DNA from: a virus
Reading direction: 5' to 3' (one strand)
DNA length: 64,000 bases
Virus record (IMG/VR): IMGVR_UViG_3300012949_000001
The position numbers and the translations under genes are program-made. Positions 7,169-63,678 of the stretch are shown here, piece by piece. Under the pieces are notes generated by a model. It made no database searches and was not told the DNA's origin. It worked only from the letters and a program-made list of their open reading frames with translations. Positions within the stretch are counted from its first letter, which is position 1; each line of letters opens with the position of its first letter.

Positions 7169-7230
7169 TGAGTTCACCTACCTATTTATTCTCTATTATC
7201 ATAATACTTATTCTGTTGTGTTATATAATA

Positions 7231-41829: not shown

Positions 41830-41886
41830 TAACTTATCAGTCCTCCTTGTTGATAGAGGCCGGTTTTGAAGCCGACCTCTAAAGAA

Positions 41887-42243
41887 TTAATAATTAATGC
41901 TGACAATACCTTCTCCTACTTTGAAATCTGTATCACTAGCTTTATCGGCCAGAATATACATTTCTTCAGCAAGTCGATCCTGTATCTCTTCGAAGAAAAG
42001 ATTAGCTGCTTCAGCTGCTGCCTGCAGGTTTTCAGTTCCATCGAATTTCACTTTTACTTTAAATCCGGTTCTTATCTTCTTCTCAAATTGAACAGCGAAG
42101 TTTGGAGGATATACCTTTTCAAAAGAGATAACAGGTTCGCCAAGTTCATCGAGTAATTTATTTTCCTGAGGAGTAAAGTTGATTGTCTCCAGCTCCACAA
42201 CGATTACTTTTTTCTGAATAGATTTCTTATATTTTAATTGCAT
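41887..42243 (-). CDS. Hypothetical protein, paralogue of 42276..42749
   Basis: FTPQENKLLDELGEPVISF vs ITPQEEQELVENFGNPIISI. Confidence 0.7.
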   Translation of the reverse strand: MQLKYKKSIQKKVIVVELETINFTPQENKLLDELGEPVISFEKVYPPNFAVQFEKKIRTGFKVKVKFDGTENLQAAAEAANLFFEEIQDRLAEEMYILADKASDTDFKVGEGIVSINY

Positions 42244-47567: not shown

Positions 47568-47708
47568 TATGTAATTCCCCCTTCTTATACTATCTCTCTA
47601 TAGTTATTACTACACGATTATCCATTATTTAATAAATTCATTATCATTTGCCAAAAATGGCAAACGAGCCATATATAGGATTGAAATCATATAAAAATAT
47701 ATAGCGGA

Positions 47709-47737
47709 TTTTCATTTATAAGACTTTTTCCTATAAT
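47709..47737 (+). promoter_or_regulatory. SigA-like promoter in divergent intergenic region
   Basis: TTTTCA-17 nt-TATAAT, upstream of the plus-strand gene cluster; strand switch at 47568-47903. Confidence 0.4.
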
Positions 47738-47903
47738 ACGATATTTTGCTATATAGAAATTTGCCGAATAGCGAAATCGAATTTGAGAAAAATTTTCTGG
47801 AGGGACCAGGTTGTATATTAAGAAGGTTGAACTCGGAATTTGAGCCCTGGGGGTGTCATTCCGAGCAACGTATTAAAAAGATAAATCAAAGGAGGAACAA
47901 AAG

Positions 47904-49540: not shown

Positions 49541-49819
49541 ATGTTGGAAATAGTTCTTAACGACAACTTAAAAGAATTTGTTTTTGTTTGTGCTGAATGT
49601 GGTTACATAGTAGATTCATTTAAGGCATGTTCTTGTGGAAGTAAGCACTTAGTATTATGTGAGCTTATTGAAGAAAACCCTGTATGCATAAAAATAGCTG
49701 TTTCTAGTCCTGTCATGGCCAAGACATTATTGCATAAGAGAATAGTTCTTGGCATAACACATGTTGATAACAACTTGCCAGTGTTTACATTGCTCAAAGC
49801 AAGTGTGTTTAAGATTTAA
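49541..49819 (+). CDS. Zn-ribbon protein, 92 aa
   Basis: CAECG...CSCGS. Confidence 0.65.
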   Translation: MLEIVLNDNLKEFVFVCAECGYIVDSFKACSCGSKHLVLCELIEENPVCIKIAVSSPVMAKTLLHKRIVLGITHVDNNLPVFTLLKASVFKI

Positions 49820-49833
49820 AAGATAGTTAATAC

Positions 49834-49872
49834 AGAGGGCCATCTAAAACAGGTGGCCCTCTTAAAATTTGA
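49834..49872 (+). repeat. GAGGG/CCCTC hairpin element H1
   Basis: 12-bp stem AGAGGGCCATCT/AGGTGGCCCTCT, 5-nt loop, then TAAAATTTGA and RBS. Confidence 0.75.
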
Positions 49873-49889
49873 GAGGAGGTGAGAAAGAG

Positions 49890-50039
49890 ATGATAATCAT
49901 GGAAGTAACTATCCCAATCAAATCACAACCACAACAAGTACCACAGCAAAGTAAACCTAAGAAGAGACGCAAAGGAAAGAATGAAGAAGTTTTGACATTC
50001 AAGCAGTTACTGGACATGGCAATGAAAAAGTACGAATAA
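49890..50039 (+). CDS. Small basic protein, 49 aa (not in track)
   Basis: RBS GAGGAGGTG; MIIMEVTIPIKSQPQQVPQQSKPKKRRKGKNEEVLTFKQLLDMAMKKYE. Confidence 0.6.
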   Translation: MIIMEVTIPIKSQPQQVPQQSKPKKRRKGKNEEVLTFKQLLDMAMKKYE

Positions 50040-50069
50040 CATTTAAGAGAAGGAAAGGAGAAAACACGT

Positions 50070-50345
50070 ATGATTACAACAAGAACAACAAATGAACTCA
50101 AAGAGGTAGCAGCAAGAGCACTGGAGAATTACTTAGAGGAACTGTTTAATGAGGCTATGGAGACATATGACACCAACAGAGAACTGTTATTATTATCTTT
50201 CTATTTCGTAGGTTGTGAATCTATTAAGAAGGGAACTTTCATGATTGTCAACAATGAAGACCTTGCATACATAGTAGTTCCTGGCATTCCATTTGATGTG
50301 ACAAAAGATTGGAGCTTTAGAAACACAGAAAGGAGATGGTCATAA
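50070..50345 (+). CDS. Hypothetical protein, 91 aa
   Basis: RBS AAAGGAG. Confidence 0.65.
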   Translation: MITTRTTNELKEVAARALENYLEELFNEAMETYDTNRELLLLSFYFVGCESIKKGTFMIVNNEDLAYIVVPGIPFDVTKDWSFRNTERRWS

Positions 50346-50695
50346 TGTTAATAACACCGAAGGTAGAAGTAGGACGCTGCTATACATCAATAGCACTTGG
50401 CATCTTTATTGTAAAGCATATTTCAATGAATGGCATTCTTGTAACCATAATCAACAAGTATGGTGAAGAGAGAAAGCTGAGCTATCTTATGTTTGACGAG
50501 GAACAGGACAGATCATTTAAGTGCAGAGAGATTTCAAGAGATTTCTTCATCAAAGAGTATAAGAACAATAGCAAGGATTATACTCTTAGATTTCTGTATG
50601 AAGATAAACCAAGAGAAAGATTAAAGGGGGTGACTAAGTTCAGAAAGATAAGAGCTGTGTATCAAGTATGTCAGCAACAAGAATATTGCTATTAA
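50345..50695 (+). CDS. Hypothetical protein, ~116 aa
   Basis: TAATG coupling with the previous gene; track start is 50336. Confidence 0.65.
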   Translation: MLITPKVEVGRCYTSIALGIFIVKHISMNGILVTIINKYGEERKLSYLMFDEEQDRSFKCREISRDFFIKEYKNNSKDYTLRFLYEDKPRERLKGVTKFRKIRAVYQVCQQQEYCY

Positions 50696-50710
50696 TAGGA
50701 GGTGATTGTT

Positions 50711-50788
50711 GTGAAGAAGGGCGAAATTGTGACAGTGGCTGCATTGTTCGCAATTGCAGCAATTCTATTGATTCTGTCAACCAGATAA
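50711..50788 (+). CDS. Single-TM micropeptide, 25 aa (not in track)
   Basis: RBS AGGAGGTG, GTG start; MKKGEIVTVAALFAIAAILLILSTR. Confidence 0.55.
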   Translation: MKKGEIVTVAALFAIAAILLILSTR

Positions 50789-50805
50789 TACAAAGGAGAG
50801 TGCAT

Positions 50806-51009
50806 ATGAAAAAAGTACTAGCAGTTAAGAAGAGATTTGTTCAAGATGGAAAAGTGTACATACAGGATTGCATCTCTGGACAGATCGCAGTGGTTGGTAG
50901 GAGCTTTGTTGCTCCTACTATCACTGATACCACACCAAAGGGGCCATATGTTGAAATTCCAAAATTCATGATTGAAAGGAGAAAGAAAGAGTATGGACGG
51001 AATGATTGA
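50806..51009 (+). CDS. Hypothetical protein, 67 aa
   Basis: RBS AAAGGAG; 3' part of track ORF 50668..51009. Confidence 0.6.
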   Translation: MKKVLAVKKRFVQDGKVYIQDCISGQIAVVGRSFVAPTITDTTPKGPYVEIPKFMIERRKKEYGRND

Positions 51010-51433
51010 GCTCCCAAGATTCAGAACAGTAGCTCTTGGGTATAGCAAAGAAGACATTGCCAACTATCTTGATTTGATTGGCAATGAAATCTTGAGATCA
51101 AAAGAGATTATTAAGGAGAATGCATCTCTTAGAGATCAGATTGGGGTGCTGCAGCTGTATCGTGACAACTATGAAGAACAGAAAGATTTAATAGCTCAAG
51201 CACTTATTGATGCTCGTGAAGCAGCTACGAATATTATCAAAGAAGCAGAAGATATTGCTGCAAAGATAGTACGCGAAGCTGAATCGAGGGCAAAAGAAAT
51301 CCTCACAAAGGCAAAAGAAGAAGCTAATATTACAATCAACGCTGCCAATGCTGCAGTTGCAAGAAAGGAGGAAGAGTTCAATAAGATACAAGGCAAGATT
51401 GAAGAACTTAGAAACATGCTAAATAAAGCATAA
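50993..51433 (+). CDS. DivIVA/GpsB-like coiled-coil protein
   Basis: PRFRTVALGYSKEDIANYLD followed by a long coiled coil with AIIxEAExxA-type repeats. Confidence 0.75.
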   Translation: MDGMIELPRFRTVALGYSKEDIANYLDLIGNEILRSKEIIKENASLRDQIGVLQLYRDNYEEQKDLIAQALIDAREAATNIIKEAEDIAAKIVREAESRAKEILTKAKEEANITINAANAAVARKEEEFNKIQGKIEELRNMLNKA

Positions 51434-51442
51434 CACATAATA

Positions 51443-51479
51443 AGTCTAGGAGGGCTCATATGCTGGGCCCTCTTAGACT
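51443..51479 (+). repeat. Hairpin element H2
   Basis: 16-bp stem AGTCTAGGAGGGCTCA/TGGGCCCTCTTAGACT with 2 G-T pairs, 5-nt loop. Confidence 0.75.
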
Positions 51480-51625
51480 AAAAGGAGGAATTATTGATGA
51501 TGTTAAGAGGAGCTTAGAGAAATACAATGATGAATATTTTATTTGCGAAATAGGCTTGACAGAGGAAGGATACAAAAACCTGTTGAATGAGTTAACAAAT
51601 AAAAATAATGTCAAGGAGGAAGGCT

Positions 51626-52261
51626 ATGTCAACCATAAATGATGTACTAACAATACTTCGCAACTACAATGATGAACCTGAAGAAATGGAACGTATACTT
51701 ATGTGCCTATCAAAAGAAGAGCAAGCAAAACTTAAGGATTTAAGAATTACGCTCGTAGATCAGATTGATTGCCCTAATAAATGTGATATTTTAATTGATT
51801 TTTACGAGATGCTAAAAATCACATCCGAAACACCTGAAACAAAAATAGATAAACCCAAATTAAATGACTGGAAAATCTATCTCTGGGGCAAAGCATATAG
51901 AAATTGCAAACCTCTAGTTAAATGGTGCAGACAAGCTATTAAAGATGGCAAATTACCTAAAAGAGTTGATGAAAACGGGTGGCTATATCTATATGTCAAT
52001 GACTTGCTCCCATATAAAGGTCATGTATTAGATGGTATTAATGCGGGTAGCATAGATTTATTTACGGTTATTAACGATGATGTTATTTCTGGCATAGAAA
52101 TTAAAATGCTAATAAAACAGATAATAAATGATGGCATGCCAAATATTAACCCATCATATTTGCCAGAATTAAAAGCAGGTCGCCTGGGATATGTAGCAGC
52201 ATATAATAAAGGCACTGAAAAATATCTACAAGCTGTTGGTTTAGGCAAATGGCTTAATTAG
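51626..52261 (+). CDS. Hypothetical protein, ~211 aa
   Basis: RBS GGAGG before ATG 51626 (track start 51608). Confidence 0.65.
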   Translation: MSTINDVLTILRNYNDEPEEMERILMCLSKEEQAKLKDLRITLVDQIDCPNKCDILIDFYEMLKITSETPETKIDKPKLNDWKIYLWGKAYRNCKPLVKWCRQAIKDGKLPKRVDENGWLYLYVNDLLPYKGHVLDGINAGSIDLFTVINDDVISGIEIKMLIKQIINDGMPNINPSYLPELKAGRLGYVAAYNKGTEKYLQAVGLGKWLN

Positions 52262-52279
52262 CCAGATAAACAAAATTAA

Positions 52280-52558
52280 GCAGGGATTAGCAATAAACTG
52301 CTTGGCAGAAGAGTTCAGATGCATAGTAACTGGGATAACATAAGACTGCAAATCATGTATCATGTTTTAAAGGCTAAGTTTACTCAGCATCCTGACTTAT
52401 TAAAGAAACTAAAGCAAATCAATGAACCAATTATAGAGGAGAATCATTGGAACGATACTTACTGGGGAACATGCAATGGAGTAGGCCATAACTATTTAGG
52501 AAGGTTTTTAACGAGAATAAAGAACGAATTGGAGGTCAATGATGATAAGAATAGTTAA
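52280..52558 (+). pseudogene. C-terminal half of a NADAR (YbiA-like) protein, N-terminus missing
   Basis: LLGRRVQMHSNWDNIRL...AKFTQHPDL...IIEENHWNDTYWG...GHNYLGRFL; in-frame TAA at 52277; weak RBS. Confidence 0.65.
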
Positions 52559-52856
52559 TATGAGAAATCACACCTATAGGCTATATGAGGTGCTCATTCG
52601 AGTAGACAGAACCACAACAGTAGGTAATCCGTTTCGTATGTACACTGAAGAGCAACGTGATGAAGTATGCGATAAGTATGAGAGTTATTTTTATCGCAGG
52701 CTTCAAAAGGATAAGAAGTTTAGGGATTATGTTGAGTACATAGTCGACACGGCCAGGAAGCATGATGTGGCATTAGGATGTTGGTGTTATCCAAAACGTT
52801 GCCATGCAGAAACAATTAAACGATATGTTGAAGAACGACTAAGAGGGGACCATTAA
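52539..52856 (+). CDS. DUF4326-like protein
   Basis: VDRTTTVGNPF...R.EVCDKY...LGCWCYPKRCHAETI. Confidence 0.75.
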   Translation: MMIRIVNMRNHTYRLYEVLIRVDRTTTVGNPFRMYTEEQRDEVCDKYESYFYRRLQKDKKFRDYVEYIVDTARKHDVALGCWCYPKRCHAETIKRYVEERLRGDH

Positions 52857-52877
52857 GGTTCCCTCTTAAAATTTGAA
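52841..52877 (+). repeat. Hairpin element H3
   Basis: 11-bp stem AAGAGGGGACC/GGTTCCCTCTT, 5-nt loop, then AAAATTTGA and RBS. Confidence 0.75.
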
Positions 52878-52938
52878 AGGAGGTGATGCAACCATCTTGC
52901 TATTAGCAAATCAATCTATTAAGAAGGGAGGTGCTGAT

Positions 52939-53361
52939 ATGGGTAAGAAGCTTATTAAGTCATGTATGCTGTGCATACTGCTTGCTTTAATAGCTATCAT
53001 GGTGAACATTGTTTTACCATCGTTGACTATTAGAGTGGCAGACTTAGTAACCTTTGCTGCCATTGTTTTTGTGATAGTGATAGTCATAAGGATGATTCCT
53101 GTCATAAAGCAGATGTGGCAAGATTACTGCGACCGCACAGATAAGGCTACCATGCGAGCCATGTTAGGAGTAAAGATGGCTATGGATTATGGCATAGACA
53201 TCAATGCTCCTATCGAGCGTGGTAATCCTTTAAAGCTTCTTATTAATGACGTCAACTGGCCGAAGAAATTCAACCAGTACAAGTATCAATTTGGCGTCAT
53301 GCCCAAAGGCGAAGATGAGTCAGAGGTAGACATCTATGCTCTGATGCATCAAGAAGTATAA
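52939..53361 (+). CDS. Two-TM membrane protein, 140 aa
   Basis: RBS GGGAGGTG; two hydrophobic N-terminal helices. Confidence 0.65.
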   Translation: MGKKLIKSCMLCILLALIAIMVNIVLPSLTIRVADLVTFAAIVFVIVIVIRMIPVIKQMWQDYCDRTDKATMRAMLGVKMAMDYGIDINAPIERGNPLKLLINDVNWPKKFNQYKYQFGVMPKGEDESEVDIYALMHQEV

Positions 53362-53528
53362 CCATACATAGAAAGGAGGTGATTATCAAAAAACGGTGGT
53401 ATCACAATCAATACTGGAGGCTGGAGGGCGGAGGTGTCCACGACGTACTGCTGATGGACGTTGGAGGAGAGTAGGCAGTAGATCGGCTATTTTTACAATA
53501 TCACTAGTTGAAAAAGGAGGAGATTCCG

Positions 53529-53639
53529 ATGACATGCAGTGCTTTACTAGTTCTTGGGGTACACATGATGTACTCACACAATTTGCAAATGATGGGTTTT
53601 CGGCAATACTATCGAAAGGTGGTGTTGCTGGGGATCTAA
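53529..53639 (+). CDS. Possible 36-aa peptide
   Basis: RBS AAGGAGG; MTCSALLVLGVHMMYSHNLQMMGFRQYYRKVVLLGI. Confidence 0.35.
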   Translation: MTCSALLVLGVHMMYSHNLQMMGFRQYYRKVVLLGI

Positions 53640-53683
53640 CCGTCACAAAAGAAAGGGCAGCCTACCCTACCTATGATAAGGGT

Positions 53684-53830
53684 TTTCCCTGGGATCGAGA
53701 GGAGGTGATGCCAGGGGAAGCAGCGTAACCGTTGACCTCTCGCCGGAGACCTTCCAGGTGCAGAATCTGGAATTCGTCTGCCAATGAGTGATTGTCTCGG
53801 GATAATGACGGGGCGAGTGCCAGATTGATG
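53684..53830 (+). ncRNA. Candidate structured RNA/leader upstream of the polymerase gene
   Basis: GC-richer than flanks; helices 53684-92/53711-19, alternative 53696-702/53736-42, 53764-70/53820-26 and 53791-806. Confidence 0.35.
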
Positions 53831-53865
53831 AGAGAGGGGTGTCAAATCCCTCTTTTAAAATTTGA
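53831..53865 (+). repeat. Hairpin element H4
   Basis: AGAGAGGGGT/ATCCCTCTTT, 5-nt loop, then AAAATTTGA. Confidence 0.7.
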
Positions 53866-54003
53866 AACGTGTTAGCCTAGCATAGCACGTTAAATCAAAA
53901 GAAAGGAGGATTAATAAGTCAAGACAAAACCATGACTGATATATCCATCAGTCTGTCATGGTGCTAGGAACAAGGTGGATAAAAAATTTGAAAGGAGATA
54001 ATT

Positions 54004-56052
54004 ATGAAAATGCACATCTTCAACAAAATGGACAAGGAACAAGAGGTAAAGATAATATTCAGAGGTCATGAGTTTTCCATGGCTCTGAAGGATCTACTTG
54101 ACAGAGTAGATGCAAATGGTGTTGGTAATATTTTAGGAACCAATGCTTTGTATTTCATTGACAACATCAAGTCAATGAATCCGCTGACAATTGAAATCGT
54201 GTCAGCAGAAACAGAAATGAATACAATCACATCAGCTTCTATTGCAGACAGAATCATGCCTATAGTTCAGAAACGTGGTCGTGGTTTGTCTCACATCCAC
54301 ATTGAACTTGGTATAGTACAAGTAGATGATAAAACCTATTTGAACAACAGGGTAGGTTTTATGAAGGTCCCTGAGAATTTGGCTTCAAGATTAGGAGTGT
54401 TCGACATCGAAGATTCTGTTGTGTTCCGTCATGGCAAAGACTTTGTACGGATTAACTCGACAGATAAATACCCTGCAACATTACAGATTATATCTGTACA
54501 CTATGCAGGGGATGAAGAACAAGGCAAATATGCTATTGAGAATGGCATATTCATGAAGCCTGATAAGAATGGCAACTATAAGTTCTATATCAAACAAGGT
54601 GATAAGTTATACGACTTAGAATCTGGTGAAGTAGTATTTGAAGGGAATGGCTTAATAAAGTATGTGCCATTTCCGTCATCAGCATCCAGTGAGAGAAGGA
54701 AATCGCTCTATTTCATAGATGCTTCCACAGAGGAGAGAAAGAGAAGAGCAGATGAAATTCTGGATTTGGTGACAAGCGGGGCTTATAGCATCGACTATGG
54801 CAAAGAAATGCAGTATGCCAAGTTTGCTAAACTGGCTGGTAGATGGACTCAGTTCCAAGCTCCTTCTGTTAGCCTTGGCTCTGTAGGAAGATATGCCCTA
54901 TTTGATGGGGTAATAAATGAGAACCGCTTGGATGGAATGATGTATGGTTCTGCAACATTTGTTGCAGATGCCATATTAAAGATGAAAGGATACAGGATTC
55001 ATCCAGATGCATTAAACGGTATATTCATGCAGATAAGACCTACTTTGATTAAGGCAGGTATGATTATCACAAAGGATGAGTATATCGAAAATCTGATTTA
55101 CACCCTGGATCCTAATCCGATTGTATTCCGTTATGAAGATGTAACTGAAGAGATTATCAATAACATTCGTAACGGACAATATCGTAACAGGATCATCATC
55201 ATTGGTGATCCTGAAGAACCTATAGCATATGTTGCTGACAGGAATGCACTGAAGTCAGATTATGATTTCAGAATCGTTCCTGAGTTTACTGTACTCAGAT
55301 TCTTAAAGAGTACAGATTCTAATTTTAGCAGCACCATATTCCAGAAGTGCGTTGCTAAAGATGCCAATAAAGCTATTAATCTTGCAAAGAGACTGTTTGT
55401 AGAGTTCTCTGCAGAAAGACTTAATAGCATGTTGGAGCCTAAAGCAAGAGTACTGTCTCCTGATAAGTTTGAAGGAGCATTCTATATGGATGAAATCCTG
55501 GAGAATGTATTCCCGAAATACGTCATGATGGACAGTAATTTTGCAATCAACAAATTAGACAACGTTACTAAGTCAATCAATAAGGCACTGGATAGATTTA
55601 AGGTGCCGATGAATGGTAAGAATGCTGGTCTCACAGTAGGTCTTGAAGTAGCATTTGGACTTAAGAGCTTTCTTGGGGACCATGAAGTATATTGCCATTC
55701 TCTTGAAAGGATGCTTAAGAAAGAAGAACGTCCTGAGGAGAAATGGAAGGTATTCATGATTAAATATCCTTCAATGGATATTGATGAATATCAAGTTGCA
55801 AGACTTGTTTCTACTTCAGAGCTGAAGAAGAGAATCAAGGCATCTGGACTTAGTAAAGACATGCAAAACATGTTCATTGATTACTATTGCAGTCTGCATG
55901 ACTCAGTTATAGTAGTACCTGCTTGTGAAGTATTCAAGAACATGTTGGCTGGTTCTGATTTCGATACTGACCAGGTTTGCTGCAGTATTGATGAAGAACT
56001 TGTTGAGTTACTTGAAAATGAACCTGTTGCTATCGTTTGCAGAGAGGAGTAG
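54004..56052 (+). CDS. RdRP-family (YonO/QDE-1-like) two-barrel RNA polymerase, catalytic part
   Basis: Ordered motifs KLAGRWTQF, LDGMMYGS, FMQIRPTLIKAG, LGDHEVYC, IKYPSMDIDEY and LAGSDFDTDQV. Confidence 0.85.
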   Translation: MKMHIFNKMDKEQEVKIIFRGHEFSMALKDLLDRVDANGVGNILGTNALYFIDNIKSMNPLTIEIVSAETEMNTITSASIADRIMPIVQKRGRGLSHIHIELGIVQVDDKTYLNNRVGFMKVPENLASRLGVFDIEDSVVFRHGKDFVRINSTDKYPATLQIISVHYAGDEEQGKYAIENGIFMKPDKNGNYKFYIKQGDKLYDLESGEVVFEGNGLIKYVPFPSSASSERRKSLYFIDASTEERKRRADEILDLVTSGAYSIDYGKEMQYAKFAKLAGRWTQFQAPSVSLGSVGRYALFDGVINENRLDGMMYGSATFVADAILKMKGYRIHPDALNGIFMQIRPTLIKAGMIITKDEYIENLIYTLDPNPIVFRYEDVTEEIINNIRNGQYRNRIIIIGDPEEPIAYVADRNALKSDYDFRIVPEFTVLRFLKSTDSNFSSTIFQKCVAKDANKAINLAKRLFVEFSAERLNSMLEPKARVLSPDKFEGAFYMDEILENVFPKYVMMDSNFAINKLDNVTKSINKALDRFKVPMNGKNAGLTVGLEVAFGLKSFLGDHEVYCHSLERMLKKEERPEEKWKVFMIKYPSMDIDEYQVARLVSTSELKKRIKASGLSKDMQNMFIDYYCSLHDSVIVVPACEVFKNMLAGSDFDTDQVCCSIDEELVELLENEPVAIVCREE

Positions 56053-56058
56053 TCAATC

Positions 56059-57726
56059 ATGGCTACTTCTCTTTTTATATCATCAAAAAAAATAACAGAA
56101 AGGGAGATTAATGAAATGGTTACTTTAAAGGGCGTTAATGAGGAACTGTATAAGGTATCTTATGAGAGCATTGGTTTAATGACTCTTAAGAAGATGGAAG
56201 GCATCAAGTATAGCATAGGCCAGATTTCAAACTGGGTTACTAAGTGGATAATGGTTAGTCCAGAAGAAATCAGAAAGGCTTTACGTGCTGATGGTTACAG
56301 AGAAGGCCGCAACAAGCACTATATCGGTCTGGTTGGCAAGCACAGCAATGAGATTGAAGAGTTCAAAGATGAGATTACTAAAGCTATCATCTTTGAGGTG
56401 AACTTTGCTCTTGATAAAGCTTGTCACAAAGAAATACAAACTTGCATCTGGTCTGATGAGAACATTAACAAATTCAGACTAGATATGATTAAAATTGGTC
56501 GTCTTTATCAAGAAAAGACGATCGATTATGCTAAGAAACTCTGCAAGTTAGATATCATCAATTCTCCAATGAGACACATTCAACTGTTAAGCATTGCTCC
56601 TATGAATGTGGCATTAGGAGAGGACAGGATAATCATTACACCTCCAATTGAAGACGAGAACAAGATTGTAGTAAATGATATTATCAATCAGGTTCGTCTC
56701 GATTTGGTTAATGAGTATAAGGAGTTTGTTGATGAGAAGCTGCTTCCTGCTATTAAATCAGCAAGACTTCCTAAAGATATGGCTGCAGAATTAGAGAGAC
56801 GTCGTTATGGCGACGTTGAAGCATTCGTAGCCATGAAGGAATATTACAAAGATATCTCTGGAGGATACATCAGAGTTTCTGATGATGTTGAGAGCGGAGA
56901 AGATGAAGAGACTTCATTATCCGTTGTTAAAGAACAGTTCAAGGAAGACAAGGCTCGTATTGAGAACATGATTCGTCTTGCAACACAATATATGAGCCCT
57001 GAAGAAAGAGGAGCATATATGAAGTATATTGCTGGACGCACAAAGAACAATCAGAAAAGAACTGATGGTTCTGAGAATAGGTTCTATCAGGCTCTTTGCC
57101 GTGAAGAGTTCCTGAGGTGGCTTATCAGTCTTGGCCTGAACGAAATAGACTTTGCTGGATACAAACTCTTAAACAATAAGGGTTATGTAGACGGTGATAT
57201 GGTCTGGTTCGAGAATGGGCAGGCTGCAAAGGCAATCATTGATGGAACCTATACAGGTTGGCTTACTATCAGAGAATACAATAATAAACTGTATGCTACA
57301 GTTGATATTAAGGACCTGATAGTTGTGCCTGAACCTAACAACAAAATCATAATCAAAGTACAACAGGGCTTTGTTTCAAAGCATGGTGCTGATAAGATTA
57401 TAAGAGCTATTAATACAAGCCGCAATGTAGTTATCAAGTCTGGAGGCAAAGATGGTTTCGTAATGGACATCATCAATGCCGAAGGTAAGAAGTGCTCAAT
57501 ACCTTATGATCTTAGACCTGTATTCTTCAAGATGTTTAAGGATTTAACAGGTAAGATCGTTAAGGTATCAAAGAATACTGTAAGAACACAGGCAGGTATG
57601 CTTGTTGATTCAGTGTATATTAGCATTGATCTTGATACTGTACCTGAAGGTCCTGAAGTAACTCCTATTAAGTTGCCTGAGGCCTTGACACTTGACGATA
57701 TAGTTGAGACAGATGAAATCATGTAA
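56059..57726 (+). CDS. C-terminal part of split RdRP-family polymerase
   Basis: SIGQISNW and LYQEKTIDYAKK match the post-catalytic RdRP motifs (lG.isn; aVD.aK); own RBS AGAGGAG, 6 nt after the upstream stop. Confidence 0.7.
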   Translation: MATSLFISSKKITEREINEMVTLKGVNEELYKVSYESIGLMTLKKMEGIKYSIGQISNWVTKWIMVSPEEIRKALRADGYREGRNKHYIGLVGKHSNEIEEFKDEITKAIIFEVNFALDKACHKEIQTCIWSDENINKFRLDMIKIGRLYQEKTIDYAKKLCKLDIINSPMRHIQLLSIAPMNVALGEDRIIITPPIEDENKIVVNDIINQVRLDLVNEYKEFVDEKLLPAIKSARLPKDMAAELERRRYGDVEAFVAMKEYYKDISGGYIRVSDDVESGEDEETSLSVVKEQFKEDKARIENMIRLATQYMSPEERGAYMKYIAGRTKNNQKRTDGSENRFYQALCREEFLRWLISLGLNEIDFAGYKLLNNKGYVDGDMVWFENGQAAKAIIDGTYTGWLTIREYNNKLYATVDIKDLIVVPEPNNKIIIKVQQGFVSKHGADKIIRAINTSRNVVIKSGGKDGFVMDIINAEGKKCSIPYDLRPVFFKMFKDLTGKIVKVSKNTVRTQAGMLVDSVYISIDLDTVPEGPEVTPIKLPEALTLDDIVETDEIM

Positions 57727-57735
57727 CAAACAAAT

Positions 57736-57764
57736 AAGGGCTGCCTGGATAACAGGTGGCCCTT
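57736..57764 (+). repeat. Hairpin element H5
   Basis: 12-bp stem AAGGGCTGCCTG/CAGGTGGCCCTT, loop GATAA; shares CAGGTGGCCCT with H1. Confidence 0.75.
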
Positions 57765-57790
57765 TCTTTACAACAGAAAGGAGATAAAAA

Positions 57791-58099
57791 ATGAATAGTA
57801 CAAATAAAACAATGAGCTTGGTGCTTAACCAGTTTGTTCTAAACAGTCTGTTAGCAGACAAAGAAGTAAAAGAAATAGTATTCAAACACATTGATAAGGA
57901 CTTTTGCAGCGACTACTTTGCAAAAGTGACGTTTGCGTCAGATGAACAGGTTGTTCTGTTATTTGACTTTAAGAATAATGCCTGGATAGATGCTAATGAG
58001 ATATTCTTCCCTAAAGGTAAGACACATGAATGCCCATTCCATCCAGGTACTATCTGCAGACATACTTGTGATGAATGCTGGTTTAATAAAACACTATAG
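57791..58099 (+). CDS. Hypothetical protein with C-terminal Cys/His cluster
   Basis: CPFHPGTICRHTCDECW; RBS AAAGGAG. Confidence 0.7.
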   Translation: MNSTNKTMSLVLNQFVLNSLLADKEVKEIVFKHIDKDFCSDYFAKVTFASDEQVVLLFDFKNNAWIDANEIFFPKGKTHECPFHPGTICRHTCDECWFNKTL

Positions 58100-58110
58100 G
58101 AGGGATAAGT

Positions 58111-59289
58111 ATGCTAATAACAGTAAACGGCATCGAGAAAGAAGTTAATGTCATAAAGAAAGGTAATGTATGGGTCTGTAGAGTAGGCGAAGCGATAGCA
58201 TACTGGAATGCGAAGTATCAGATGCCATATGTAATATGTAAAGGTAAAACACTACAAGAGATTAATGAAATGAAACCAGTCATTGTTGCTTATCTGCGTG
58301 AATATAAGAGACTGGTTACATTAGAAAAGAAACCTTCTCCCTTATCATTTGAGGGAGAAGGAATAACTGACTCTGAATATAGAGAACAGAAGTCAGAGAA
58401 GAAAGAAGAGCATTATGTGTCTGGTGTTCCTCAATGGTTGCGTGAAGTAAAGATTAAACAGCTGTGCTCAGGACCCAAAAGAACATTTTATAGAGGCATC
58501 AGAATACCACAGGAATATAAAGACATGGCTAAAAAGTATATTCCATTTTGCTGCAACTGTGTTCACAGAGTTAATTGTGACACGCCTTGTTTATTACCAG
58601 AAGTAAAATCACAAGAAACATTATTAGAAGGTATTGAAAAGGAGGAAATGAATATGTCAAAGTTTTATGGAGTAAAGGTAGGAAGAACAGTAGGAGTTTA
58701 TACAACATGGGCAGATTGTGAGGCTCAGGTAAAAGGTTTTTCAGAAGCACAATACAAAGGCTTTAACACAAGAGAAGAAGCAGAAGAATATGTAGGAATC
58801 AAGAATCAAGCAACAACATCCAGTGAGACACAATCAAACACTAACAGCAAACTTGTTACTATCTATACTGATGGTGCATGCTCAGGAAACCCTGGCCCTG
58901 GAGGTTGGGGCTGCATTCTGATGTATAAGGAGCACTACAGAGAATACTCTGGTTATGTTCCTGATACAACCAATAACCAGATGGAATTATTAGCAGCTAT
59001 TAAGGCATTAGAACAACTCAAGTTCCCTTGCACCGTGGATTTGTATAGCGACAGCAAGTATCTTGTTAACGGTATGAATCAGTGGTTGACAAACTGGAAA
59101 CGTAACAACTGGAGAACAACATTGGGAGCAGTAAAGAATAAAGAATTATGGGAAAGACTTGATGAACTTAACAGCATTCATACTATCAGATGGCATTACG
59201 TTCAAGGTCATGCGTCTAATCAGTATAACAATCGCTGCGACCAATTAGCCACTGGTGCAATAAAGAACAAAGGACCTGTTGCACAATGA
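58111..59289 (+). CDS. rnhA: Ribonuclease HI with hybrid-binding domain and ~180-aa N-terminal extension
   Basis: FYGVKVGR..GVYTTWADC..QVKGF (HBD); IYTDGACSGNPGPGGWG, TNNQMELLA, LYSDSKY, VQGH and NNRCDQLA. Confidence 0.92.
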   Translation: MLITVNGIEKEVNVIKKGNVWVCRVGEAIAYWNAKYQMPYVICKGKTLQEINEMKPVIVAYLREYKRLVTLEKKPSPLSFEGEGITDSEYREQKSEKKEEHYVSGVPQWLREVKIKQLCSGPKRTFYRGIRIPQEYKDMAKKYIPFCCNCVHRVNCDTPCLLPEVKSQETLLEGIEKEEMNMSKFYGVKVGRTVGVYTTWADCEAQVKGFSEAQYKGFNTREEAEEYVGIKNQATTSSETQSNTNSKLVTIYTDGACSGNPGPGGWGCILMYKEHYREYSGYVPDTTNNQMELLAAIKALEQLKFPCTVDLYSDSKYLVNGMNQWLTNWKRNNWRTTLGAVKNKELWERLDELNSIHTIRWHYVQGHASNQYNNRCDQLATGAIKNKGPVAQ

Positions 59290-59293
59290 TTGT

Positions 59294-59329
59294 ATATGAG
59301 AGGGCTCTAATTATAGGGCCCTCTTATAT
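59294..59329 (+). repeat. Hairpin element H6
   Basis: 16-bp stem ATATGAGAGGGCTCTA/TAGGGCCCTCTTATAT with G-T pairs. Confidence 0.75.
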
Positions 59330-59394
59330 TTTGAGAAAGGAGCGTGATGTTATGTTTCATCTGTCTTTTTAATAATGCTCGTATGTATCCACGT

Positions 59395-59760
59395 AACGGT
59401 ACGGCCCCTTCGGGGCGTAGTGAAAAAGGTTCCTTCGGAACTACAGTCATGTTTTCCCTCACACGATATGTTTGAGGTTAAAAGTTCGTCAAAAGGCGAG
59501 CGAGCCCTTCGGGCTATCCCACACACCCTTTGGATAAAAACCAACCGTGAGGGAGACGGGTGCCAGCCTGCTCCCTCACACATCTCCCTTGCATACCCAC
59601 TCATATCATAATTTTACTCTTCCTCTATTATTAACTATTCAATAATAGGGGAAGAGGAAATAAATAGTGACGAGGGTGAACAATCTATAAGTTATTTAGA
59701 TTATGCCCTCACACGCTATTAATGAAGGCTGTCTAAGTTATTGTACGGCCTTATAAAATT
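59395..59760. ncRNA. Structured non-coding region (ncRNA or origin candidate)
   Basis: Three C-TTC-G hairpins, three CCCTCACAC copies, a 9-bp and a 16-bp helix; no convincing ORF. Confidence 0.4.
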
Positions 59761-59777
59761 TAAGCAAGGAGGATATT

Positions 59778-60182
59778 ATGGCCAGCAAACGTATCGCAAT
59801 AGTTTTTAATCATCCTGTCATAGTCAGAATAGATGATGTATTCGACAGAACCAAATCAATCAAGGTATATGACAGGGCGTATGATGACACATTAGACCCC
59901 ATAGGTTACTACAGCTACCATAAGGCGATAACAGAAGTATTGAAAGAAATCGTCAATGCCAATAAGGAAGACATGATATATGGCATCTATGTTGATTTTG
60001 ACACATTGAACAGGGGGTCATATACAGAAGAAATCGCTAAGAAAGAGTTAGAATGTATACTAACAATGCGTGAGTATGAGAGATATCGTAAGCTTACGCA
60101 CTTTAACACAGCGTTTCTTAGCATTAGTTCATGTAACAATTATGAACAGTTAAAGAATATAATACAGGCCCTCACACAATAA
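59778..60182 (+). CDS. Hypothetical protein, possibly degenerate RNase H fold
   Basis: RBS AAGGAGG; YHKAITEVLKEI...IYVDFDTLNRG weakly parallels the RNase H core. Confidence 0.55.
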   Translation: MASKRIAIVFNHPVIVRIDDVFDRTKSIKVYDRAYDDTLDPIGYYSYHKAITEVLKEIVNANKEDMIYGIYVDFDTLNRGSYTEEIAKKELECILTMREYERYRKLTHFNTAFLSISSCNNYEQLKNIIQALTQ

Positions 60183-60318
60183 CTTTGAGGAAGTAACACG
60201 CATATAGAGAGCACGATGTTGCGACCTGTAAGCGTGATACTTTTATAGAAAACAAATATTTCAGGAGGCGTCCGAAGAGAATACGCGACCCCGTTCTGGG
60301 GATAGGAAAGGAGCAAAA

Positions 60319-60855
60319 ATGGCTAGAAATGTAATTATTGTTGGACGTGGAAATTCTATTAGCAGACTGATTTATGATCCCGCTACACAGAAGGCATCCG
60401 CAACAGACTACACTGGACTGGTGAACACTGAAATTAAGGGTAGCACCAGAATCAACTGCTTGAGCGTACTGGTAAGGACTCTCCAGCAGTTGTCCGAGAA
60501 GGAAGGCTTCTTGGAGGAGACAACACCGACTGTTGTATATACTGTTGGCATGGTTGCAGACACAATCAATAACGGCACATTCAAGCATTGGTTGCTTGGA
60601 GAAGGCAAGAAGCTGAACGGTGAAGCAGTAAATGAAAGCGAACTGGAGCTTTGGCAGGAGTTCTCAAGACTTTATACAGAGCTGTTCTCTCACATCATCA
60701 TCAAGAACGTTGCCGACATACGTATTCCTAAGAACCCCAGATATGCTATTTCTATGGAACAGAGAATACTCAATGATTTTGTTGAGAAGGCCTGGGATAG
60801 AATCAAGGTTACGGCTCCAGAGATCGAAGAGAGCGACGACGAAGCGTTCAACTAA
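60319..60855 (+). CDS. Probable catalytically inactive RNase H-fold protein
   Basis: STRINCLSVLVRTLQQL...VVYTVG...INNG...HWLLGEGKKLNGEAVNESELELWQEF parallels RNase HI helices but lacks the acidic triad. Confidence 0.55.
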   Translation: MARNVIIVGRGNSISRLIYDPATQKASATDYTGLVNTEIKGSTRINCLSVLVRTLQQLSEKEGFLEETTPTVVYTVGMVADTINNGTFKHWLLGEGKKLNGEAVNESELELWQEFSRLYTELFSHIIIKNVADIRIPKNPRYAISMEQRILNDFVEKAWDRIKVTAPEIEESDDEAFN

Positions 60856-60865
60856 CAGGAAAAAT

Positions 60866-60888
60866 CGTTCCCCTATACTGGGGGAACG
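60866..60888 (+). terminator. GC-rich hairpin after 60319..60855
   Basis: CGTTCCCC/GGGGAACG stem; no long T-tract. Confidence 0.45.
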
Positions 60889-60949
60889 TTGGTCGCAGAA
60901 CGGTTGAAAAGTCGATACCGTGTCGTCATGCATACGATGTTGCGAATCG
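60889..60949 (+). repeat. Structured repeat motif, copy R1
   Basis: TTGGTCGCAGAACGGTTGAAAAGTCGATACCGTGTC...TGTTGCGAATCG. Confidence 0.85.
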
Positions 60950-61305
60950 CTTTACTCATATTTCACCAGACGAAGTATGAGGACATATCAGGTCTGGCGT
61001 TGGCATCCCTAACCAGCATAGGGTGTCGCGAAAATACAAAGCTGGTAGCCGTGTTTTTCATTTGTTTGGCGGCGGAAAATCAGAATAACAAGTGCAGGGT
61101 ACCCACTCTGAAAACTGGGTAGAGAATGGGTGCGGACATTCTCCCTACGTCCCGCACGATGTAGGAATATTCGGTATATATGCAAAGGTCCCGGCCGGAG
61201 CATGGTTGCCTCTTGTTCATAGGAACAACAGGTATATATATTGTCATGAGTATATGCGTAAAAAACCTGTTCCCAAATGACATTCCGGTCTTTGAGGGCA
61301 GGTTT

Positions 61306-61373
61306 TTGGCCACAGAACGGTTGAAAAATCGAAACCGTGTCATAGTATGTCCAGGCTATGATGTTGTGGATCG
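61306..61373 (+). repeat. Structured repeat motif, copy R2
   Basis: TTGGCCACAGAACGGTTGAAAAATCGAAACCGTGTC...TGTTGTGGATCG. Confidence 0.85.
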
Positions 61374-61641
61374 TCGTCTTATAGGCTGTCGTGTCCTGAC
61401 TACCAGACTATAAGAACAGAGACTTCCTTTCTTATAACGAAGTGTCAGGTAGGAGACCCATCCTATGCTATAGACATTATAGCAGAATGGTAGAGAGTAG
61501 GATGTGGCTACTCTCCCTGCAACCACATCAAGCGGGCATGTATTTGGAATATGTATTTGGAGAAAAGCTGAAAAGCCCACGCCGCTAGGAGAAAACTCGG
61601 CCTTGGGGAAAGAGAGAAATGAGGACCGAAGGCGACGTGGG

Positions 61642-61700
61642 TTGGTCTCAGAACGGTTGAAAAGTCCATACCGTGCTAATCAGATTAGTGTTGAGAATGG
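61642..61700 (+). repeat. Structured repeat motif, copy R3
   Basis: TTGGTCTCAGAACGGTTGAAAAGTCCATACCGTGCT...TGTTGAGAATGG. Confidence 0.85.
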
Positions 61701-61726
61701 CAAATACGCACAAGGAGGCATAACAT

Positions 61727-62002
61727 ATGAACACCAGTAACACAGTAAGGCTTTCAGGGACACATGATTTTGGCCCGTTATATAAGTTTAAGCCAGACAT
61801 AGGTTTACTTATAATACTGCCGCCAAACTGTATGAGGAAAGCCTGTACTAAAGGACGTATTAAAAAGAGTATAGTAGCAAAGTTGAGAGACCTGACTCTG
61901 GAGAACATGCTTGATCTCAATGAAAAGCATGGTGTAACTTTCGAGGCAGTGAACAAGACTTTGGTACTAGAGAAATTAAGAATGGGAGGAACACTGTCAT
62001 GA
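61727..62002 (+). CDS. Hypothetical protein, 91 aa
   Basis: RBS AAGGAGG. Confidence 0.65.
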   Translation: MNTSNTVRLSGTHDFGPLYKFKPDIGLLIILPPNCMRKACTKGRIKKSIVAKLRDLTLENMLDLNEKHGVTFEAVNKTLVLEKLRMGGTLS

Positions 62003-62280
62003 AGGTAAGAGGTAAAATAGTTCTGAAAGGTTCTAAGGTTATTCTATCAGACGTCGAATTAGACTGCCAGAATATCGAACTTGAATATGAAGCAAGTTAT
62101 TCAGTCAAAGAACTGGCTGATGTGTTTGATTTATTGCCAAAGGCAGTGGATAAAGTATGTGAAGCAGGAACGAAACTCATAACAGGACAAAACAATATTG
62201 TATCATTAGAAGATATTGTGAATGAATTGATAAAGTATGAGGCGGAGACAGCTTCAACAGAAGAAGACACAGAAGAGTAA
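61999..62280 (+). CDS. Hypothetical protein, 93 aa
   Basis: RBS GGGAGG; ATGA overlap with the previous gene. Confidence 0.65.
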   Translation: MKVRGKIVLKGSKVILSDVELDCQNIELEYEASYSVKELADVFDLLPKAVDKVCEAGTKLITGQNNIVSLEDIVNELIKYEAETASTEEDTEE

Positions 62281-62298
62281 CTGATAGGAGGCATACCT

Positions 62299-62796
62299 AT
62301 GGCACCAACAAAAGAGATAGACGTATTCGTAGACGGCAGCTGTACAGGCAATGGCCAGCCTGGTGCCGAAGGAGGTTGGGCATTCTTTGCGACACTGCCT
62401 AACTCAATAGATATAATAAATGGGTCAATCCATATAGGCAAACTCAGGATAGGCAAGCAAACAAATAACAGAGCCGAACTTGAATCAGTCTATCAAGGTT
62501 TACTATGGATAGACGCACAACCGAATGATGGAACAAGATATACTATATGGAGTGATTCAGAAGTAGCTGTTAATGGTATAAATGGTTCCTCTGGAAGAAA
62601 TGCGAATAGAGACATATGGGAAGACATCGAACCACTATGTAGAAAACTCGTAAGAGAAAAGAAACTTGCAGGAGTAAATTATATTGAAGGTCATAAGAAA
62701 AACAGCACAGAGCCCCGTCACATAAATAATTGTGCATGTGATAAATTGGCTAAGCAAGGAACCAATAGTTTATTATTAGAACCATATCAACCATAA
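62299..62796 (+). CDS. Second ribonuclease H (RNase HI family)
   Basis: VFVDGSCTGNG, TNNRAELESV, IWSDSEVAVNG, IEGH and NCACDKLAK; catalytic D/E/D/D present. Confidence 0.88.
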   Translation: MAPTKEIDVFVDGSCTGNGQPGAEGGWAFFATLPNSIDIINGSIHIGKLRIGKQTNNRAELESVYQGLLWIDAQPNDGTRYTIWSDSEVAVNGINGSSGRNANRDIWEDIEPLCRKLVREKKLAGVNYIEGHKKNSTEPRHINNCACDKLAKQGTNSLLLEPYQP

Positions 62797-62812
62797 GAAA
62801 GGAGTTACGTAA

Positions 62813-63631
62813 ATGGCTAAACCTACAGTAAATAATGACACTGTAATAGTATTCGGTGGCAAGACATATAATGTTGAACAATTTGCCAACGAATTTTCAG
62901 CTGGTAATACAGATATAGCTATTCTCACAATGGAGAAATTGTTGGAGACAGGTAGAGCTCATCTGTTTAACGAAGTCAAATCAAGACAAATTAAAGCACT
63001 GGAGAAGACATTTACAGAACAGCAAATCAAAGAAGCCGCAGCAGAACATGAATATTTCGAAGAAGCAGGAAAAGACTTCAGAGCCGAAGAGAAAAGAGAA
63101 GGAAGACTCACATATGAACTTGTTGAGTTTGATTTCCCTTATATGTTGAAGGCTCAGGAGTTTGAACGTTACGTTAAAGAAGACCTCAGGATAAAAGATA
63201 CAGAAATATCTGTACGTAACGGTCAATGTGTCCTGAAGGTTTATAATGTAACTGATTCAGAAATCAATGTAATGAGTAGAGCCTATAAGGCAGATAAGAT
63301 TACCCAGACTGCCGTAGGAGCTGTAGATAACACTGTCAAGAAAGCAACAGACGCTGTTCATTATGGAGCAACTAAGATTGTAGCTCCTATAGCAAAAGCA
63401 GGAGCAAAAGCAAGTGCAAGTATTCTGAAGACAGTGTTGACCACCGCAGCAAAGACAGCAGGTGGTTTTGTATCAGCGACCACTCAGGGAATCAAGAGTG
63501 CCGCAACCGAAATCAAAAATGATCCTGATGTATTAAAAGGAACAAGAGATGTCCTTGAAGCTGGTGACGCTATCAGACGTAAAATCAAGTTTGAGCATCC
63601 TGGCGGTAAAGGCATTCGTGTTTACCAGTAG
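62813..63631 (+). CDS. Hypothetical protein, 272 aa, Ala/Thr-rich C-terminus
   Basis: RBS AAAGGAG. Confidence 0.7.
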   Translation: MAKPTVNNDTVIVFGGKTYNVEQFANEFSAGNTDIAILTMEKLLETGRAHLFNEVKSRQIKALEKTFTEQQIKEAAAEHEYFEEAGKDFRAEEKREGRLTYELVEFDFPYMLKAQEFERYVKEDLRIKDTEISVRNGQCVLKVYNVTDSEINVMSRAYKADKITQTAVGAVDNTVKKATDAVHYGATKIVAPIAKAGAKASASILKTVLTTAAKTAGGFVSATTQGIKSAATEIKNDPDVLKGTRDVLEAGDAIRRKIKFEHPGGKGIRVYQ

Positions 63632-63633
63632 GT

Positions 63634-63678
63634 TAAGAATGTGATGAGGGGGAAGATAATTCTCCCTCACACTTCTTA
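63634..63678 (+). repeat. Hairpin element H7
   Basis: TGAGGGGGAA/TTCTCCCTCA core with GATAA loop, extended by a bulged outer stem. Confidence 0.65.

Follow-up and report, generated by a model that had tools for sequence, protein, structure and literature searches.

The phage genome described here carries repeated hairpins between the genes of one of its arms, and the question is what these hairpins do. The stretch analysed, called the window throughout, is 64,000 nucleotides (nt) of viral DNA from IMG/VR virus record IMGVR_UViG_3300012949_000001. Its coding strand flips at about 47.9 kb, with minus-strand genes before this point and plus-strand genes after it, and the guanine-cytosine (GC) skew flips there too. 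An earlier note, made from the letters of the window, had listed eight hairpins of the plus arm as one family and proposed that they serve as promoters for a virion RNA polymerase or as processing or stabilising sites of the early mRNA. We find that the core of this set, here called class A, consists of conserved, covarying RNA signals of the sense strand that are specific to the early arm. With moderate confidence we read the class A hairpins as terminators or attenuators between early-arm genes that are recognised by a phage two-barrel RNA polymerase and are not standard host terminators. To our knowledge, the stop and promoter signals of such polymerases (the P23-45 gp96/gp64, crAss-like gp66 and YonO types) are almost unknown; the sole conserved terminator motif that we know of for them is that of phage P23-45, and its mechanism is open.

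Hairpins of the plus arm and the class A family

All eight hairpins of the earlier note were found (starting at 49834, 51443, 52841, 53831, 57736, 59294 and 63634, numbered H1 to H7 below, and a weaker one at 59725). Folded as RNA they reach -11.6 to -28.1 kcal/mol, with z-scores of -3.0 to -6.8 against dinucleotide shuffles. GAGGG/CCCTC stems are enriched: GAGGG-N5-30-CCCTC occurs eight times against 0.28 expected and 0 of 100 shuffles reach eight. Its restriction to the plus arm is equally clear: all eight occurrences lie between 49835 and 63668 and none in the 47.9-kb minus arm. The minus arm has intergenic hairpins of its own, which are unrelated in sequence to the plus-arm set, and several of these carry ordinary U-tracts (7273, 18833, 24099). 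The plus-arm hairpins begin 2-14 nt past stop codons (H3 overlaps the stop) and finish 17-29 nt before the next start; H4 is the positional exception, as it lies inside a long leader about 150 nt upstream of a polymerase gene. Among these hairpins, a generic terminator scan listed only the one at 63645.

Class A elements have the layout (TTT)AGAGGG, variable stem and loop, CCCTCT, then A (W over all copies) and AAAATTTG. The basal helix AGAGGG/CCCTCT consists of six near-invariant pairs (indexed from the CCCTCT block in an unaligned tabulation), and above it 4-6 further pairs are free in sequence with pairing kept (CG, UA, GU, AU and others). The stems are continuous, 10-16 base pairs (bp) long and without internal loops; the loops of 3-7 nt are variable and AT-rich (AAAAC, ATTAA, GTCAA, TAATT and others). 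The RNA tail is U/A-AAAAUUUG, and a bacterial-type U-tract of about 5-8 residues was not found in class A.

Relatives of the window were reached by protein searches with the 682-amino acid (aa) protein encoded at 54004-56052, followed by look-ups of the contigs. Profile and sequence searches of viral and metagenome contigs with this protein or its alignment returned no relatives, and none of 50,697 phage records matched the plus arm by megablast, so that no close relative exists among the deposited phages. An exact IMG/VR scan for CCCTCTTAAAATTTGA returned 15 loci, none of them with the hairpin, which marks these as chance matches. Five metagenomic relatives bear class A elements, and their polymerase is 28-62% identical to that of the window: contigs L016 and L017 have five copies each, L021 three, and L019 and L022/L023 one each. 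L016 and L017 are syntenic with the window, with a polymerase about 60% identical.

MAFFT moved length differences to the 5' end of the hairpin and set the 5' arms out of register, which made alignments A2-A4 and A8 unusable for structure. A covariance model (R1) was built from six copies of equal geometry, with realignment by cmsearch, and 190 kb of sequence was searched with it. R1 recovered every copy outside its seed, always on the sense strand, and nothing on the minus arm of the window. Its window matches are 52842, 59299, 49834 and 53833 (E 6e-9 to 9e-3). The copies that had been left out of the model and were found by it are 49834 and 53833 in the window, 891, 1639, 2656 and 4346 in L016, and 1239, 3275, 4008 and 10067 in L017, together with L021 2816, an L021 copy cut by the contig end, and L019 84. 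In alignment A7 (15 sequences), which was fitted to the model and somewhat favours structure, 98.6% of cells pair and 7 of 10 pairs have both sides changed in a compensatory manner. These values were reached in 0 of 500 shuffles, partners slid out of register pair in at most 64% of cells, and the same pattern is seen in the unaligned tabulation. The basal helix too can be kept by compensatory changes, as in L022, where it reads GGGAGA/TCTCCT.

The hairpins differ between the strands. In 21 of 21 hairpins (classes A, B and C, from three genomes) the sense RNA is more stable than the antisense RNA, and the sense folds contain 41 G-U pairs against 6 in the antisense folds. The G x T composition is near-equal (0.060 for sense and 0.056 for antisense), and base composition therefore does not explain the G-U asymmetry. 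From this asymmetry and the greater stability of the sense RNA it follows that the hairpin structure is under selection in the sense-strand RNA of the transcript, or at the very least in the non-template strand.

The strand asymmetry is also the main argument against the N4 analogy of the earlier note. In an N4-like promoter the inverted repeat would extrude as a DNA hairpin and recruit the virion polymerase. The promoters of N4 are formed by hairpins in the template DNA strand, with stems of 5-7 bp and a conserved loop of 3 nt, and are used by a T7-like single-subunit virion polymerase (PMC4496689). The window does recall N4 in that conserved early-region hairpins, with conserved bases and upstream of genes, occur in a phage that encodes a giant polymerase-like protein. 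However, a template-strand hairpin would bear about two A-C mismatches in each copy, stems of 10-16 bp with variable 3-7 nt loops stand against the short stem and fixed loop of N4, and neither of the two polymerase-like proteins of the window (a giant open reading frame (ORF) with a beta-prime-type motif and a second enzyme of QDE-1/YonO type) is T7-like. Nor is there a copy before the first gene of the plus arm. With stem length, loop, strand and enzyme class all different, the N4-type promoter is not supported as the explanation, and we consider it very unlikely. Integron attC-like sites, with conserved outer repeats and a variable centre between cassettes, were likewise rejected by the RNA-strand asymmetry; no integrase signal was present among the proteins scanned.

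The single family of the earlier note holds for H1, H3, H4 and H6, with H2 as a degenerate member, and does not extend to H5, H7 and the hairpin at 59725, which R1 misses. H1 (49834..49871, plus strand) begins 14 nt past the stop of 49541-49819; its stem AGAGGGCCATCT/AGGTGGCCCTCT (-21.7 kcal/mol, z -5.5, R1 E 1.5e-5) is followed by T-AAAATTTG and then by the Shine-Dalgarno (SD) sequence GAGGAGG. H3 (52841..52875, plus strand; R1 E 6e-9) overlaps the TAA stop of 52539-52856 and runs into AAAATTTG and then the SD AAAGGAGGTG. H4 (53831..53864, plus strand; R1 E 0.009) lies in the leader of the polymerase gene, and class A copies are found at equivalent leader positions in L019 and L021. H6 (59294..59333, plus strand; R1 E 1.3e-8) begins 4 nt past the stop of an RNase H gene and carries the flank variant TATATTTTG; in L016 and L017 the orthologous element keeps the canonical flank and stands before a non-coding block. 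The statement that AAAATTTG follows several of the hairpins is thus correct for H1, H3 and H4, where it follows directly, while H6 has only the degenerate version. H2 (51443..51479, plus strand; -28.1 kcal/mol), after a DivIVA-like gene, keeps the stem, GGAGGGC/GCCCTCT extended by AGTCTA/TAGACT, and has lost the flank, with AAAAGGAGG in its place. It is orthologous to the sole post-DivIVA element of L016 and L017. R1 finds it weakly (at 51449, E 0.32) and the hairpin-only model R2, described below, finds it at E 0.0016.

The remaining three hairpins are different. H5 (57736..57775, plus strand), assigned to class B, begins 9 nt past the stop of the second polymerase gene, has the stem AAGGGCTGCCTG/CAGGTGGCCCTT and is without an R1 match; an orthologous, sequence-conserved hairpin follows the second polymerase gene in L016 and L017. 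Its U-rich tail, TCTTTAC, is the exception to the claimed lack of long U-tracts, which is otherwise accurate. The weaker hairpin (59725..59762, plus strand; -11.6 kcal/mol, z -3.0) has an unrelated stem, AAGGCTGT../..ACGGCCTT, and is followed by a 2-nt spacer (AT), AAAATTTA and the SD of 59778-60182. H7 (63634..63678, plus strand) begins 2 nt past the stop of 62813-63631, has CCCTCACAC within the 3' arm, and its orthologue is L017 13806.

H2 and H3 enclose a 1.4-kb block (51480..52840, plus strand) with 3-4 small ORFs that is absent from L016 and L017, where a single hairpin is found. The sequence upstream of H2 and that downstream of H3 align to the two sides of this single L016/L017 site, and the copies therefore mark at least one difference in gene content. 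Such a block would be expected if the elements acted in DNA, either as hot spots of recombination or, like PeSLs or MITEs, as mobile cassettes, and in this way rearranged the early genes. PeSL cassettes of T4-type phages, in which a strong sigma-70 promoter is paired with a stem-loop, behave alike (Arbiol et al. 2010, PMC2839356), and they share with class A the repeated stem-loops between small early genes and, in the one case of H2/H3, a gene-content difference bounded by copies. On the other hand, outer pairs and flank stay constant although the inner stems differ both among copies and between orthologous sites, which speaks for purifying selection and not for recent spread, and the strand asymmetry points to RNA. 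No promoter of sigma-A type accompanies the elements; unlike in PeSL cassettes, the one promoter-like site that touches an element (49869, at H1) is not conserved in other copies, and promoter-like sites of this type are no more frequent than in shuffles (61 against 58.4 expected). The window phage also has polymerases of its own, unlike the T4-type phages that bear PeSL cassettes. We regard a primary role in DNA as most improbable, and the shuffling of early genes is more likely a by-product of the repeats.

The P23-45 precedent and the candidate phage polymerases

A precedent for hairpins of this kind comes from Thermus phage P23-45. Where its virion polymerase transcribes, 3' ends of transcripts have been mapped, and seven of them have a hairpin motif of 26 nt in common (Chaban et al. 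2024, PMC10770324). The terminator hairpins include GAGAGGGC-GCTA-GCCCTCTC-TTTT and AGAGGGC-GCTTA-GCCCTCT-CTTTT, and the pre-early terminators are attributed to gp96, a virion RNA polymerase fused to the tape measure (PMC10770324). We confirmed these hairpins in the genome record (L029), where they lie on the arm that diverges from the packaging genes, a layout as in the window. Model R2 describes the hairpin only and was made from five elements of the window, L016, L017 and L021, with P23-45 sequences left out of it. Searched against the 84-kb P23-45 genome, it gave as its top four matches (L029 1610, 2932, 4022 and 4373; E 0.01-0.03 each) intergenic AGAGGGC/GCCCTCT hairpins of the pre-early region that are of the mapped-terminator type, with nothing comparable in the other 80 kb. 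As a control, about 108 kb of unrelated viral contigs gave no match above 12.7 bits.

The two phages are alike beyond the shared stem core (G)AGAGGGC/GCCCTCT(C). In both, the elements stand between small early genes on an arm that diverges from the packaging or structural genes and contains the second polymerase gene; the class A copies of the window are at 49.8-59.3 kb, 2-11 kb from the strand switch, and flank the polymerase genes at 54004-57726. Both also encode a giant protein with a DFDGD motif and a QDE-1/gp64-like polymerase. They differ in host phylum, GC content and virion type (the window has a sheath gene), and class A stems are longer than those of P23-45, with covarying upper pairs. 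The 3' ends of P23-45 are mapped, whereas those at class A are predicted.

More distant relatives (polymerase 30-35% identical by HMMER) are without the AAAATTTG flank, but they have intergenic stems of AGAGG type with ordinary U-tracts. In L024 an intergenic hairpin at 14105 reads GCGGAGAGGGC...GCCCTCTCCGC with a U-rich tail, and in L020 AGAGGCTCT-TAT-AGAGTCTCT followed by U7 stands at 12165, between two polymerase genes.

We then consider the enzymes that could read such signals. The giant ORF of the late arm (2..7177, minus strand) runs off the edge of the window and encodes more than 2392 aa, with the beta-prime-type motif NLDFDGD at residue 2287. BLASTP gave a local match of 70 residues to residues 720-786 of P23-45 gp96, around the catalytic loop DFDGD (E 0.003 for the pair), in which FPMIREGSAV...NLDFDGDTIM of the giant ORF aligns with FRNPVMGHGGAL...GVDFDGDTLV of gp96. 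Residues 340-475 match a PHROG exonuclease, and no match was found in Pfam, among PDB sequences or by tblastn in the 50,697 phage records. From these motifs the giant ORF is a candidate virion or injected RNA polymerase.

The second enzyme is a split two-barrel RNA polymerase of QDE-1/YonO type, encoded by two adjacent genes for 682 and 555 aa (54004..57726, plus strand; the first gene is 54004-56052). The 682-aa protein has SDFDTD at residue 652, near its end, and 208 relatives, including fused forms of about 1200 aa. Its AlphaFold2 (AF2) model, made with 36 sequences, has a predicted local distance difference test (pLDDT) score of 90.5, and Foldseek matched it with QDE-1 and RDR2 (E about 1e-10), with the crAss-like virion polymerase gp66 (2e-3) and with P32 gp64 and P74 gp62, non-virion polymerases of the P23-45 type (about 0.01). 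Pfam, PHROGs and PDB sequence searches of the window proteins gave no polymerase match. Judged from the structural model, the pair at 54004-57726 is a candidate non-virion polymerase. In a comparison that included the proteins P0011, P0013 and others, the split into genes for about 680 and about 550 aa was seen in the window phage and its close relatives; elsewhere the enzyme is a single protein of about 1200 aa, and some relatives are longer, up to about 2000 aa. Just past the polymerase genes, 58111-59289 encodes an RNase H1-like protein with an N-terminal hybrid-binding domain (Cauli_VI plus RNase_H), and relatives carry further RNase H genes. It is a speculation that this RNase H would clear RNA-DNA hybrids left by polymerases that have no lid or rudder elements.

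The part of the earlier proposal that ties the hairpins to a phage polymerase and to the ends of early mRNAs is thus supported, because the giant ORF has the NLDFDGD motif and the gp96 match, the plus arm encodes an enzyme of QDE-1/YonO type and the elements are confined to that arm. If class A elements stop transcription, the nascent sense RNA would fold into the hairpin; the six basal pairs AGAGGG/CCCUCU would be read by sequence as well as by shape, and the 4-6 upper pairs would need pairing only. The fixed A5U3G tract directly past the stem would then replace the U-tract as a weak hybrid or release site. We infer that RNA 3' ends form at class A hairpins and that one of the phage enzymes reads them. 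The position past stop codons, the P23-45 stem, the U-tract versions in L020 and L024, the matching enzymes and the fixed unit of stem and flank all count for termination. Class A resembles bacterial intrinsic terminators in being a stable, GC-rich RNA hairpin directly past stop codons, and differs from them in having no U-tract and in its sequence-invariant basal pairs and flank. Ordinary U-tract terminators are also present in the window, those of the late arm at 7273, 24099 and 18833 and the one at 57736 past the polymerase genes.

Several points weigh against termination by a phage polymerase. The tract after the stem is A-rich with three U only, and a bacterial polymerase would terminate poorly on it by the intrinsic mechanism. 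Down to its last G, the flank is stricter than any known U-tract, which suits a sequence for recognition or initiation no less well. The leader of the polymerase gene, and not the space directly past a gene, is where H4 and its counterparts are found. The conserved CTAG/TTAG loop and the T-tract of P23-45 are not found here, where variable AT-rich loops and the fixed W-AAAATTTG take their place. The four P23-45 matches are copies of one motif, that is, one coincidence of a 7-bp stem counted four times, and E-values of models as short as R1 and R2 are rough.

Class A is a covariation-supported element in at least six uncultured phages, with the same stem core as P23-45 in a host phylum other than that of P23-45, and it separates positions read by sequence from positions that need structure only. 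Its natural variants (compensatory basal helix, lost flank, U-tract versions) offer a ready mutational design for in vitro work on stop and restart with clamp-less or flap-less enzymes. In metagenomes, class A can also be used as a marker when the early regions of such phages are annotated.

The flank after the stem

The part of class A that is most conserved is W-AAAATTTG, which stays the same in L021 and L022 despite their changed stems. Its distance from the stem is fixed. In the relatives, sense-strand AAAATTTG is found solely behind class A hairpins (5 of 5 copies in L016, 5 of 5 in L017, 2 of 2 readable copies in L021 and the single copies of L019 and L022). Fixed spacing together with obligatory association would be expected if stem and tract form one terminator unit. 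At the same time, the flank is invariant, ends in a purine and often stands directly before an SD, which points toward an initiator or a recognition sequence.

The second of these observations is the basis of a reading in which each element joins a terminator to a promoter: the hairpin would end one transcript, W-AAAATTTG would be a short promoter or initiator at which a phage polymerase takes the invariant G, or the base after it, as +1, and every gene or small block would form a separate unit, the arrangement seen in the pre-early region of P23-45. There, each pre-early gene has an 11-nt AT-rich promoter that ends at +1 and a conserved hairpin terminator, so that a terminator followed by a short AT-rich promoter has a direct precedent (PMC10770324). 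The invariance of the flank next to changed stems and its conserved purine end agree with this proposal. AAAATTTR can also abut an SD where there is no class A stem, as it does at window 53983, window 59755 and L027 491; in the first case the AAAATTTG copy (53983..53990, plus strand) precedes the SD of the polymerase gene 54004-56052, and the upstream fold reaches only -9.2 kcal/mol. Tracts of A5T4 type occur in the divergent region, where a promoter for the plus arm must exist, and one element of L016/L017 precedes a non-coding block and not a gene. But the spacing between stem and flank is fixed in class A, whereas in P23-45 the promoter follows the terminator at varying distances of 6 to 49 nt (6 nt for TTS1/TSS2; PMC10770324), the flank never occurs apart from the hairpin in the relatives, and neither inspection of the divergent region nor the R1 search revealed a canonical copy ahead of the first plus-arm gene. 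We consider this joined terminator and promoter possible, if doubtful.

Two related observations may be added here. A host-type promoter, with TTTGAAA/TTTGAGA as a -35 box and an upstream A-tract, was considered and rejected: a hexamer resembling a -10 box is correctly spaced in H1 alone, and the spacer would have to contain the SD. In P23-45 (L029 36000-42100, minus strand), AT-rich pre-early promoters (TATTCCTTTA) abut TG, with the mapped +1 A being the A of the start codon, and the pre-early mRNAs of that phage appear to be leaderless.

The other half of the earlier proposal, processing of the early mRNA, was also weighed against the flank. Here a host or phage endoribonuclease would read the basal helix and cut the single-stranded A5U3G, so that the upstream mRNA keeps a protective 3' hairpin and the downstream mRNA begins just before its SD. 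Such an enzyme might recognise the sense-strand RNA by its basal pairs of specific sequence and by the single-stranded, AU-rich flank that is conserved beside them, and the plus arm encodes many proteins without assigned function, any of which could supply the nuclease. RNase III sites of the T7 type are duplexes that span about two turns of the helix and usually have an internal loop where the cut is made. They and the sites of phage SP82 are like class A in being intercistronic RNA hairpins with conserved bases in early polycistronic regions; class A stems, unlike these, are shorter and continuous, and the conservation extends into the single-stranded 3' flank. The early mRNA of Bacillus phage SP82 carries sites for Bs-RNase III, an enzyme of narrow specificity (PMC4838370), which counts in favour of processing. 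Uninterrupted stems of 10-16 bp are nevertheless shorter than classical RNase III substrates, and this weakens the case for RNase III sites of the T7 type, leaving room for another endonuclease. The presence of the same stem type at mapped 3' ends in P23-45, and with U-tracts in L020 and L024, points instead to termination, and no candidate nuclease was identified. Processing or stabilisation is therefore unlikely in our view.

Returning to termination by a phage polymerase, its broadest form would connect stop and restart. AGAGGGC/GCCCTCT may be an ancient cis-signal that has come down along with giant injected two-barrel polymerases, in Thermus siphoviruses as in sheath-tailed phages of Bacillota, and to which an AT-rich initiator has been joined here at constant spacing; if the polymerase stays anchored where the DNA enters, it could let go of its RNA and restart on the spot, gene by gene. 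We put this forward tentatively and hold it to be rather unlikely.

Genome setting, a second motif and further repeats

The minus arm (47.9 kb) contains terminase, tail sheath and tail-fibre-like genes, and no shared late-promoter motif was seen by eye upstream of its genes. The plus arm opens with small genes, among them those for a SleB-type cell-wall hydrolase and a DivIVA-like protein, and has strong AGGAGG ribosome sites; this gene content and these sites suggest a Bacillota host. Rfam and tRNA scans of the window returned nothing.

One hairpin of the minus-strand gene arm is class A-like. It lies at 41855-41889, upstream of the terminase gene and before the terminase SD, and reads TAGAGGTCGG...CCGGCCTCTA. 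The third G-C pair and the flank are missing, and R1 matched it only at E 0.5, on the plus strand.

The sequence CCCTCACAC, which H7 carries, is a separate motif, and 20 of its 21 copies are on the plus strand. Five copies are in the window (59457, 59574, 59707, 60170 and 63665) and four to six in each of L016 (11160-11406), L017 (10266-10547 and 13838) and L022 (14299-14545 and 17945). They are mostly spaced 50-130 nt apart in a non-coding block past the RNase H gene. Some but not all of them serve as the 3' arm of a GAGGG..CCCTC hairpin, and the motif has CCCTC in common with the class A 3' arm. CCCTCACAC may act as a second signal for a polymerase, or an array of non-coding RNA may have it as its repeat unit. 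In the window the non-coding block (59340-59770) directly follows H6 and contains several hairpins capped by C-UUC-G, without an Rfam match; in L016 and L017 the block opens with a conserved CGGATAATCTCACG right behind AAAATTTG.

The divergent region between the arms has repeats of another kind. Boxes of the type TATAGGGATTTCAAA are repeated at window 47640-47900, L017 560-900, L022 7900-8110 and L020 4600-4700. They are followed by a conserved AAAAATTTT-CTGGRGGNACCAGG segment and then by a conserved leader hairpin (window 47836-47870, GGAATTTGAGCCCTGGGGGTGTCATTCC). Boxes, segment and leader hairpin are common even to relatives without class A elements, and the region is a candidate start region of plus-arm transcription.

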